A DNA stretch of 64,000 bases, from NCBI RefSeq assembly GCF_000026545.1, contig NC_011601.1; one strand, 5' to 3'. This DNA is from Escherichia coli O127:H6 str. E2348/69 (GTDB lineage: Bacteria > Pseudomonadota > Gammaproteobacteria > Enterobacterales > Enterobacteriaceae). Each line of letters begins with the position of its first letter. Within the stretch, counting starts at the first letter, position 1. This document shows, piece by piece, positions 59,391 through 61,889 of this stretch. The translations under genes and the position numbers were made by a program. The notes beneath the pieces were generated by a model, which saw only the letters and a program-made list of their open reading frames with translations, did not search any database and was not told the origin of the DNA.

Positions 59391-59937
59391 TTAATTTATG
59401 CAGCAGGTCCATCACTTGCTGCACCTCTTCCTGAGTAAGCGCCCCGTCTTTGGCCCATTGCACGCGACCGTCTTTATCCAGCACCACTACAGCAGAACTT
59501 TTTTCATCCAGCTGCCAGGCACCGCGTGCGACGCCATTGCTATCAACAATAAACTGCGACCAGGGATAAAGCTTTTTATTACTCTCCAGACTGCTGCGCA
59601 CAAACATCCCTGAACCCGGAATCGCGTCGTCGGTGTTAACAATGGTAGTGGTCTGGTAACGATCGTGCGGTAACTTCGCTGATTTAATCGCTTCAATCAG
59701 CGTCGCGTTTTTCTCTTTTGCAGAGGTGCGACCAGCAATATGTTGCAGTACTCGCACTTTTCCCACTAACTGCGCACTGTTCCAGGTTTTGTAGCTAAAC
59801 TGATCTTTATCAAGCACCAACTCGCCACGATCGGTGATGCCAATCGGCGGCACTCGCTGACCGGTTTCGAACTGATGTGCGGAAGCCATCATCGGCAACA
59901 GCAGGCAGGTGAGTGCCAGAATCTTGCGTAGGGTCAT
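59380..59937 (-). CDS. ytfJ: Periplasmic protein YtfJ (DUF1107)
   Basis: 185-aa ORF with signal peptide [20 protein letters not shown]; 3' end overlaps cysQ 3' end by 11 nt. Confidence 0.85.
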
Positions 59938-60261
59938 GGTGTTTCCTTCTTATGATATGCAGGTGATCCGACCACTTGGGTCTGAGTTTTAATCATATGT
60001 GCTATTTATCGAATTTCCCGCAAGTGTGATGCCAGTTTGCGGTCAAGCGCACAAATCATATGAAAAATGAATGCTTATACTGAAGACCGCGCTTCGGTAA
60101 AAAGATAATTCTGAATAATTGTAACCTTTAGGTAAAAAAAGTTATACGCGGTGGAAACATTGCCCGGATAGTCTATAGTCACTAGGCATTAAAATTTGCG
60201 CCTCATAATCGTTGGGCCGATTGTGGCACCGCAAAGGCGTAATACTCAGCAGGAGATAACA

Positions 60262-60468
60262 ATGAAAATTTTCCAACGGTACAACCCACTTCAGGTGGCG
60301 AAGTACGTAAAGATCCTGTTCCGTGGACGGTTATACATCAAGGACGTTGGCGCTTTTGAATTTGATAAGGGTAAGATTCTTATCCCAAAAGTGAAGGATA
60401 AGCTGCATTTGTCAGTGATGTCCGAAGTTAACCGTCAGGTTATGCGTCTGCAAACAGAGATGGCTTAA
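60262..60468 (+). CDS. ytfK: Small protein YtfK (DUF1107)
   Basis: ORF 60196..60468; start at [20 protein letters not shown] (68 aa). Confidence 0.85.
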
Positions 60469-60470
60469 CC

Positions 60471-60504
60471 AAAGTGCTATGCAGTAAAAAGTGCTATGCA
60501 GTAA
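60471..60504. repeat. Perfect 17-bp tandem direct repeat (2 copies) immediately after ytfK
   Basis: AAAGTGCTATGCAGTAA at 60471-60487 and 60488-60504, followed by hairpin ACGGCTCC-tgattcg-GGAGCCGT (60509-60530). Confidence 0.9.
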
Positions 60505-60545
60505 TAAGACGGCTCCTGATTCGGGAGCCGTTGATGTTTCTGGGG

Positions 60546-61889
60546 TTACGCGACGCTTTCTTCTTTATCTTTAGCGTCAGGCAGTTTTGGCGAAAGGGCG
60601 GTGGCCTTGCTGTCGATTCGGGTCACCAGCAGCTGGTCGATGCGGTAGTTATCGATATCCACCACTTCAAATTTGTAGCCGGCGAATTTCACCGAATCGG
60701 TGCGTTTCGGGATCTTACGCAGCATAAACATCATAAAGCCGCCGATGGTTTCGTAGTTGCCCGACTGCGGGAACTCGTCAATATCCAGCACGCGCATGAC
60801 GTCGTCAATCGGAGTGCCGCCGTCTATCAGCCATGAGTTCTCATCACGGGCGACAATCTGCTCTTCCAGCCCCTGACCGACCAGATCGCCCATCAGCGTG
60901 GTCATCACGTCGTTGAGGGTGATGATCCCCACTACCAGTGCGTACTCATTCATGATCACCGCGAAGTCTTCACCTGCGGTTTTAAAACTTTCCAACGCCT
61001 CTGAAAGGGTTAACGTATCCGGCACAATCAGCGTATTGCGAATTTGTACGCCGCTGTTCAGTGCCAGGCTTTGGTTAGCCAGCACGCGGTTCAGCAGGTC
61101 TTTAGAATCGACATAGCCGATGATGTGGTCAATATCTTCATTACAGACGAGAAACTTAGAGTGCGGATGTTCCGCCACCTTATTCTTCAGACTTTGCTCA
61201 TCTTCGTGGAGATCAAACCAAATCACGTTTTCACGCGGTGTCATTGAAGACGGAACGGTACGGGATTCCAGCTCAAAGACGTTTTCAATCAGCTCGTGTT
61301 CCTGTTTACGTAACACGCCCGCCAGCGCACCGGCTTCCACTACCGCGTAGATATCATCAGAAGTGATGTCATCTTTACGTACCATTGGCAGTTTGAAAAT
61401 ACGGAAGATTATGTTCGCCAGTCCGTTGAAGAACCACACCAGCGGGGTGCAAACGTACAGGCAGAAGCGCATCGGGTTGATGATACGCAAAGCCACAGCT
61501 TCTGGCGCAATCATACCGATGCGTTTCGGGGTTAAATCCGCAAACAGGATAAACATGCCAGTCACTAACGAGAAAGAGAGAATAAAGCTCAGTTGCTCAG
61601 AGAGTTCTGCCGACATATAGCGGGAGAACAGGCTGTGAAAAGCTGGAGAAAATGCCGCATCACCGACGATACCGCCGAGAATCGCCACTGCGTTCAGACC
61701 GATTTGGACCACGGTAAAGAACATGCCGGGATTTTCCTGCATATTCAGAACGCGTTGGGCATTTATATTGCCTTCATCAGCCAGCAGTTTAAGTTTGATT
61801 TTGCGTGAGGCGGCAAGCGAGATCTCGGACATCGAGAAGAACGCACTTACAGCGATCAAACAGAGTATGACTAAAATACTGTTTAACAT
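60546..61889 (-). CDS. ytfL: CNNM/CorC-family inner-membrane protein YtfL (DUF21-CBS-CorC_HlyC)
   Basis: 447-aa ORF with N-terminal TM domain, CBS pair and CorC_HlyC C-terminus. Confidence 0.9.
   Translation of the reverse strand: MLNSILVILCLIAVSAFFSMSEISLAASRKIKLKLLADEGNINAQRVLNMQENPGMFFTVVQIGLNAVAILGGIVGDAAFSPAFHSLFSRYMSAELSEQLSFILSFSLVTGMFILFADLTPKRIGMIAPEAVALRIINPMRFCLYVCTPLVWFFNGLANIIFRIFKLPMVRKDDITSDDIYAVVEAGALAGVLRKQEHELIENVFELESRTVPSSMTPRENVIWFDLHEDEQSLKNKVAEHPHSKFLVCNEDIDHIIGYVDSKDLLNRVLANQSLALNSGVQIRNTLIVPDTLTLSEALESFKTAGEDFAVIMNEYALVVGIITLNDVMTTLMGDLVGQGLEEQIVARDENSWLIDGGTPIDDVMRVLDIDEFPQSGNYETIGGFMMFMLRKIPKRTDSVKFAGYKFEVVDIDNYRIDQLLVTRIDSKATALSPKLPDAKDKEESVA

Follow-up and report, generated by a model that had tools for sequence, protein, structure and literature searches.

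Introduction

Several RNAs are known to offer extended complementarity to one Hfq-dependent sRNA at a site outside the ribosome-binding site, as do SroC for GcvB, chbBC/ChiZ for ChiX, 3'ETS-leuZ for RyhB/RybB and OppX for MicF. Hfq-dependent sRNA pairing past a stop codon has a counterpart in Spot 42, which reportedly acts on the 3'UTR of hilD in Salmonella. The capacity of a transcript for its regulator is multiplied where several identical sites are carried on one molecule, as in miRNA sponges and competing endogenous RNAs (ceRNAs), and in CsrB/CsrC and RsmY/Z with their repeated GGA motifs. Head-to-tail arrays of short units whose number differs between strains are, in turn, familiar from VNTR and MLVA loci, including those used for typing O157:H7.

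The locus described here lies in the 3'UTR of ytfK in Escherichia coli E2348/69, within a 64-kb stretch of DNA that was analysed as a whole and is referred to below as the window. The interaction between ytfK and the sRNA FnrS is already visible in public interactome tables, and the ytfK 3'UTR and FnrS form the most abundant Hfq-bound pair of E. coli K-12 in early stationary phase, a result that was reported without explanation (PMC12262471). The FnrS-complementary repeat that follows the ytfK stop codon would provide an explanation for this top chimera at the sequence level. In the literature that we searched, we found no description of what the site is, of how deeply it is conserved or of its arrangement as a tandem array of 1–4 copies. 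Literature searches with the 17-mer and with its core, each in both orientations, gave no match, and the site is not described there as a ytfK tandem repeat.

Results

Layout of the locus

The original prediction of a perfect 17-bp tandem duplication directly after the ytfK stop codon was confirmed by the sequence, by TRF and by a repeat search, which all agree (Table 1). The array starts two bases past the stop codon and ends four bases (TAAG) ahead of a hairpin. Its two copies are 100% identical, and TRF describes them with a period of 17, 2.2 copies and a score of 69, which makes this the sole TRF array with a score of at least 50 across the 64-kb window. With up to 3 mismatches allowed, the 17-mer was found in the 64 kb at the two array positions only; the shuffle expectation was 0.14, and two or more matches were obtained in 0 of 100 shuffles. 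An Rfam scan of positions 59900-60700 at E ≤ 1 returned no family, and the ytfK 3'UTR is thus not a described RNA. Each unit also holds a two-codon mini-ORF, AUG CAG UAA (60481-60489 and 60498-60506; 13 nt past the ytfK stop), the stop codon of which is UAG in most other genera.

Table 1. Positions of the features between ytfK and paeA, numbered from the first base of the window.
Feature	Position	Strand	Basis or remark
ytfK CDS, 68 aa, stringent-response modulator YtfK / DUF1107	60262-60468	+	ORF, sequence, RefSeq annotation of identical matches
ytfK stop codon TAA	60466-60468	+	Followed by CC, then the repeat array
Repeat unit 1, AAAGTGCTATGCAGTAA	60471-60487	+	Core GUGCUAUGCAGUAA at 60474-60487, complement of FnrS nt 65-78
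Repeat unit 2, identical to unit 1	60488-60504	+	Core and T60505 (60491-60505) pair perfectly with FnrS nt 64-78 over 15 nt
A-rich junction AGUAAAAAG, three successive A-R-N triplets made by the duplication	60484-60492	+	Read from sequence
Second A-R-N run AGUAAUAAG, ahead of the hairpin	60501-60509	+	Read from sequence
GC-rich hairpin, ACGGCTCCTGA / TCGGGAGCCGT, common to convergent ytfK and paeA	60509-60531		Inverted-repeat search, terminator consensus scan
paeA (ytfL) CDS, convergent neighbour, stop codon 60546-60548	60546-61889	-	ORF, annotation

Complementarity to FnrS

The core GUGCUAUGCAGUAA is the exact reverse complement of FnrS nt 65-78 (TTACTGCATAGCAC, also given as UUACUGCAUAGCAC; MG1655 fnrS, L086 4130-4251), a region that is weakly structured in the FnrS fold. 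The resulting duplex is perfect over 14 nt in each unit, and over 15 nt in the last copy thanks to the base that follows it. Binding was modelled by multi-strand cofolding of full-length FnrS with the 70 nt upstream of the repeat (the end of the CDS, the stop codon and CC) and the remaining 3'UTR. This replaced plain duplexfold, which disregards intramolecular structure and over-extended the duplexes. The net binding energy was -6.5 kcal/mol when no unit was present, -17.7 kcal/mol for one unit with one FnrS, -35.4 kcal/mol for two units with two FnrS and -54.0 kcal/mol for three units with three FnrS. In the cofold models FnrS keeps its 5' stem-loop and its terminator, and ytfK keeps its hairpin; a second FnrS, where present, is placed on repeat unit 1. 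In the model, each unit behaves as an independent FnrS site, so that two Hfq-bound FnrS molecules would occupy sites 3 nt apart.

Association of ytfK and FnrS on Hfq

Published tables place the two RNAs together on Hfq. In RIL-seq of K-12 with Hfq-FLAG, the chimera of ytfK.EST3UTR (RNA1) with fnrS (RNA2) ranks first in each of the two wild-type replicates (112,573 and 85,192 chimeras; PMC12262471). It outranks the ChiX–chiP/chiZ (second) and GcvB–argT IGR (third) pairs of the same table (PMC12262471). In the Hfq rim mutant R16A the pair was represented by 11 chimeras or undetected, in the distal-face mutant Y25D by 995 and 1,985 (a 50-100-fold decrease), and in K31A by 11,463 and 14,864 (PMC12262471). 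The RIL-seq coordinates are regional and not nucleotide-resolved, spanning K-12 positions 4439412-4439899 (PMC12262471). The ytfK CDS of MG1655 occupies 4439587-4439793 and paeA begins at 4439872; the repeat, at about 4439796-4439829, therefore falls inside the annotated RIL-seq region.

Triplets of the form A-R-N bind the distal face of Hfq. This rule, taken together with the loss of chimeras in Y25D, makes the A-R-N runs AGUAAAAAG and AGUAAUAAG candidate distal-face contacts. The strong effect of Y25D also fits an mRNA-type partner that is bound via A-R-N triplets.

The pair is likewise recorded in EPEC E2348/69, where RIL-seq of three libraries yielded 197 ytfK–fnrS chimeras at p = 1e-180, and where fnrS–ytfK.EST3UTR appears as a further entry. 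In Salmonella, the ytfK mRNA is 31.8-fold Hfq-enriched; two Salmonella interactome supplements contain no ytfK entry. The ytfK–FnrS pair was undetected by iRIL-seq, which relies on ligation in vivo, as was the second FnrS pair among the top 25. The authors of that work cite a bias against 5'-triphosphate sRNAs and different growth conditions; it could also be that a very stable ytfK–FnrS duplex arises, or is over-counted, after lysis. An Hfq dataset from nitrogen-starved E. coli contains chimeras of the ytfK CDS with MgrR and none with FnrS, as is to be expected given that these cultures were aerobic. BhsB, a 3'UTR sRNA, also has ytfK among its listed partners.

Conservation of the core and of FnrS

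Conservation was assessed in 80 loci, taken from one genome per species with YtfK. The core GTGCTATGCAGTA(A/G) was present no more than 60 nt past the ytfK stop in 69 of the 80, in other Escherichia, Salmonella, Citrobacter, Enterobacter, Kosakonia, Lelliottia, Leclercia, Trabulsiella, Pluralibacter, Yokenella, Raoultella and Phytobacter. Beyond E. coli it occurs as a single copy, and the spacer and hairpin loop around it vary freely. By a separate measure, contiguous runs of 12-24 nt complementary to FnrS nt 56-82 were found in 68 of the 80 loci, and in most loci the core region is the best FnrS-complementary site of the 2.6-kb locus. The complementarity extends over 16 nt in Enterobacter and Citrobacter and over 20-24 nt in Kosakonia and C. 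amalonaticus, where it reaches into the U-rich FnrS nt 56-63 and exceeds that of E. coli.

Pairwise identity averages 0.90 over the whole core and 0.93 over its first 13 nt, compared with 0.78 at 21 four-fold-degenerate sites of the adjacent ytfK gene, itself very conserved. Two variants are common, A/G at position 10 (in 13 loci) and G/A at position 14 (in 47 and 22 loci, respectively). Each faces a U of FnrS and exchanges A-U and G·U pairs; true mismatches within the core are restricted to single loci. Since pairing is kept in this way as G·U, the constraint appears to act on the ytfK-sense RNA, unlike one on a DNA site or on the opposite strand. It had been suggested from the sequence of the window that the duplication might be a repeated protein- or sRNA-binding site. 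The sRNA half of this suggestion is borne out by the perfect 14-nt FnrS complement in each unit and by the FnrS chimeras of K-12 and EPEC, whereas the protein half finds no support, as the G·U-preserving A/G variants argue for constraint at the RNA level. The locus thus combines the extended complementarity, the association on Hfq in published tables and the conservation alongside the sRNA that characterise a pairing site for FnrS (Rfam RF01796).

The sRNA itself is strikingly constant. FnrS was retrieved beside zntB from eight further genera, and nt 1-93 are identical in all nine (E. coli, Salmonella, Citrobacter, Phytobacter, Leclercia, Raoultella, Yokenella, Kosakonia and Franconibacter); it is also at least 99% identical in 5,389 E. 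coli genomes. As FnrS is invariant, covariation on the sRNA side is impossible, and it is the mRNA side that is informative instead. In the alignment of the nine genera the terminator loop alone varies, which is unusually strict for an sRNA. We know of no partner assigned to FnrS nt 79-93, which lie within the invariant stretch. No fnrS match was found in 34 of 5,426 E. coli genomes, and three genomes carry a copy that is about 7 nt longer (H192).

Among the 80 loci scanned, the core is absent after ytfK in most of those from Klebsiella (L013, L016, L017, L019, L038, L046) and in those from Intestinirhabdus, Entomohabitans and Tenebrionibacter (L041, L055, L077), all of which keep ytfK and the hairpin. 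In an uncultured Klebsiella MAG (L018) the core is borderline. Klebsiella and a few other genera have thus lost the FnrS site, which is therefore dispensable there.

Downstream of the single full core, Leclercia (L081), Citrobacter sp. (L083), Phytobacter (L007/L028) and Lelliottia (L074/L084) have an additional short module, GCAGTA(A), of which GCAGTAAAAAAATCGCAGTAAAAAAAA is an example. It falls within the first ~45 nt past the ytfK stop (locus positions ~1405-1450). Outside E. coli, the 3' half of the site has therefore undergone partial duplication independently.

Copy-number polymorphism in E. coli

A 181-nt query around the repeat matched 5,419 of 5,426 complete E. coli genomes. By our estimate, approximately 4,165 of these ~5,419 genomes carry one copy of the unit, approximately 1,035 carry two, 215 carry three and 3 carry four, although the collection is biased towards laboratory K-12 and O157:H7 and the counts are not population frequencies. 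A single copy is therefore the state of 77% of sequenced E. coli genomes. The two-copy query matched 1,039 genomes at 95% identity or above, and the one-copy query placed 1,033 genomes in the 90-95% band, as expected for a 17-nt gap. A query of flank and three copies was exact in 221 genomes, and one of the left flank and four copies was at least 80% covered in 218 and fully covered in 3. When both flanks were included, the four-copy query was ambiguous because split alignments score like true matches, and it was the left-flank-only design that settled the counts.

Representatives with one copy (MS7163 and 806883-9-2019), two copies (the window and K-12) and three copies (O157:H7 FRIK2069) align with the same boundaries and contain perfect arrays. 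Two-copy strains thus include K-12 and E2348/69, and the three-copy genomes that were listed or inspected are O157:H7 or O157-like. Four copies were found in strain 472, in O157:H7 PA20 and in the PA20 culture mutant 20R2R; the ytfK-paeA spacer of these three genomes is 112 nt long, compared with 95 nt in three-copy strains, which corresponds to exactly four copies.

The flanks of the array allowed copy number to be followed within haplotypes. The window differs from K-12 by a G for A in the hairpin loop (60524) and by GGGG for GGGGG just downstream (60539-60543), and O157 strains are marked by TTTATG, not TTTCTG. One and two copies are each seen with the B2-type flank (loop G, GGGG) and also with the K-12-type flank; the O157-type flank accompanies arrays of 2, 3 and 4 copies. 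Copy number thus differs within single flank haplotypes, which points to recurrent gain and loss. Slippage or duplication had been proposed as the origin of the repeat, and counting the 17-mer across E. coli genomes, the check put forward with that proposal, upholds it: copy number ranges from 1 to 4 among genomes and changes within single flank haplotypes, so that two copies are not a fixed feature of the species. As in a VNTR locus, copies of one unit stand head to tail and their number differs between isolates, including close relatives. No paper listing the locus was found in the searchable literature, to which the MLVA primer tables of subscription journals do not belong.

In the E. coli collection, records labelled as plasmids account for three of the matches to the ytfK region and for six of those to fnrS. 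E. coli RM13745 (H100) contains a partial second 'DUF1107 family protein' locus.

The hairpin between ytfK and paeA

The hairpin that had been predicted downstream of the repeat is present, with arms of 11 nt (60509-60519 and 60521-60531); the predicted span stopped one base short of these arms, at 60530. A consensus scan flags it as terminator-like on both strands, in keeping with the role in termination that had been suggested for it, even though its tails are imperfect (UUGAUGUUUCU on the plus strand and, in E. coli, CUUAUUACUG on the minus strand). In most other genera, an A7 run upstream of the hairpin provides a U-tract on the minus strand. The stem is kept across genera and the loop is variable, with covariation from T/A to C/G in Kosakonia and Franconibacter, and the stem stays intact in the cofold models. 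In the alignment, the hairpin-proximal copy of the unit and its junction with the hairpin are unchanged, which indicates that expansion of the array leaves both terminator contexts unaltered.

In E. coli AF40 (NZ_OZ547043.1; locus L005, 1590-2300), an IS200/IS605-family element (tnpA, 459 nt) lies between a single FnrS site and the ytfK/paeA hairpin. The insertion has therefore parted this FnrS site from its terminator.

Discussion

A variable array of probable FnrS sites

We consider it probable, at roughly three chances in four, that the 3'UTR of ytfK carries a variable, slippage-made array of FnrS pairing sites, which may act as a sponge or decoy for FnrS. As RNA, each unit would constitute one docking module for the FNR-induced, Hfq-dependent FnrS, consisting of a 14-nt complement followed by an A-R-N stretch that could contact the distal face of Hfq. 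The ancestral state was presumably one module, conserved across Enterobacteriaceae. The one-copy allele has an AAG at either end of the unit, with a spacing of 17 nt (AAAG...GTAA, followed by TAAG), and in E. coli this 3-nt microhomology may have given rise to the first slippage duplication. The perfect repeats so produced could then slip further, expanding and contracting to yield 1 to 4 copies. If each copy takes up one FnrS, as the cofold models suggest, copy number would set how many FnrS molecules are bound per ytfK transcript. The abundant ytfK mRNA would thereby become a high-capacity competing RNA, perhaps with coupled turnover of the ytfK mRNA itself.

Titration of FnrS by the ytfK transcript is in our view the most likely consequence of such pairing, and we infer this direction of regulation from these circumstances: the site lies past the stop codon, its chimera count resembles that of known decoy pairs, and FnrS nt 65-78 adjoin, yet differ from, the U-rich region used for yieP. 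Circumstantially, a sponge would also fit the top chimera count of the pair and the control of ytfK by sigma-S in Salmonella, which is confined to the RNA. For the region of FnrS that serves its targets we draw on the yieP study, in which the FnrS mutation tested was U61. The searchable literature did not yield a test of FnrS–ytfK pairing by mutation and compensatory mutation. A further idea, that E. coli lineages tune their effective FnrS pool via array size (1 in most, 2 in K-12 and EPEC E2348/69, 3-4 in O157:H7) and so maintain a natural variable sponge, is more doubtful, and the change in copy number itself could be selectively neutral.

Alternative roles of the site

The same pairing could instead serve mainly to control ytfK: RNase E might, for instance, be drawn to the mRNA and destabilise it when oxygen is limiting, or the 3' end of the mRNA might be protected. 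The number of copies would in that case determine the sensitivity of ytfK to FnrS and not the availability of FnrS. Control of ytfK mRNA stability by FnrS is nearly as likely as titration and is compatible with a sponge; that it should be the principal function of the site is a real possibility, if something short of an even one. It draws on the same pairing, conservation and RIL-seq evidence, and is further favoured by the order of the chimeras, in which ytfK is RNA1 and FnrS is RNA2, as is usual for target and sRNA. Moreover, the literature connects YtfK with tolerance of oxidative stress, and the genes that FnrS represses include aerobic and oxidative-stress ones. However, the position of the site past the stop codon makes a block of translation initiation impossible, and a response of ytfK mRNA or protein to FnrS induction was not found in the literature searched. 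Regulation of ytfK by sigma-S in Salmonella is seen in the RNA and not in the protein, and with YtfK protein decoupled in this way from its mRNA, a smaller effect would be expected from control exerted on the mRNA.

It is highly improbable that the array is a neutral minisatellite, i.e., a functionless product of slippage that matches FnrS by coincidence. Free variation in copy number, the 77% of genomes that are single-copy and the AAG microhomology flanking the unit would all accord with such an origin. Nevertheless, we estimate that an exact 14-mer match to the ~10^4 nt of known sRNA would be expected ~4e-5 times, the core is conserved in more than 15 genera above the synonymous level and with G·U-preserving variation, and the ytfK 3'UTR–FnrS pair is the top Hfq chimera in vivo.

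Two further readings were rejected as barely credible. The core does contain a 9-bp quasi-palindrome, TGC-TAT-GCA, that a protein might bind as double-stranded DNA, in line with the original prediction, but to our knowledge no operator resembles it, the promoter/terminator consensus scan detected no promoter between the convergent genes, and the common A/G variants keep RNA pairing on one strand yet would change a DNA site. As for a 3'-end element unrelated to FnrS, be it a terminator or 3'UTR stability part or a mini-ORF (AUG-CAG-UAA) that re-engages terminating ribosomes, the unit does lie directly upstream of the terminator-like hairpin and AUG-CAG-UAA/UAG is kept in most genera, but the unit is outside the stem in every fold, the mini-ORF has no Shine-Dalgarno sequence and owes its preservation fully to FnrS pairing, and the chimeras would be left unexplained.

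Implications

An FnrS array behind ytfK would join YtfK, an activator of SpoT, to the anaerobic regulon of FnrS through one RNA. Were the array to act as a sponge, the FnrS regulon would be coupled to the transcription of a stringent-response modulator that phosphate starvation, sigma-S, Rcs and oxidative stress induce, and the locus would parallel, in a bacterium, the multi-site competing endogenous RNAs, with a dosage that varies across the population. Strains with 1, 2, 3 and 4 sites form a natural allelic series for relating site number to sRNA activity, a relationship that in bacteria is usually approached with synthetic constructs. As K-12 carries a duplicated site that 77% of genomes lack, its interactome counts may overstate the pair for the species. 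The locus is also a simple marker, since a small difference in PCR product size separates O157:H7 sublineages.

Comparison with known systems

The ytfK site resembles the ChiX–chiP/chiZ and GcvB–argT IGR pairs in being among the top-ranking Hfq chimeras, and it is by its pairing and its chimeras that it can be likened to the sponges SroC, chbBC/ChiZ, 3'ETS-leuZ and OppX. Unlike these, it is situated in the 3'UTR of a translated mRNA and consists of identical tandem copies whose number depends on the strain. Compared with the pairing of Spot 42 and the hilD 3'UTR, the ytfK duplex is perfect over 14-15 nt and is present in multiple copies. With VNTR and MLVA loci the array has in common its short head-to-tail units, the variation of their number between strains, even within O157:H7 (2, 3 or 4), and a likely origin by slipped-strand mispairing. 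It differs from typical loci of this kind in its low range (1-4) and in a unit that is a conserved RNA site and not anonymous sequence. Finally, RNAs of the CsrB type titrate a protein and eukaryotic ceRNAs use Argonaute, whereas the ytfK transcript presents 1-4 sites for an Hfq-dependent sRNA.
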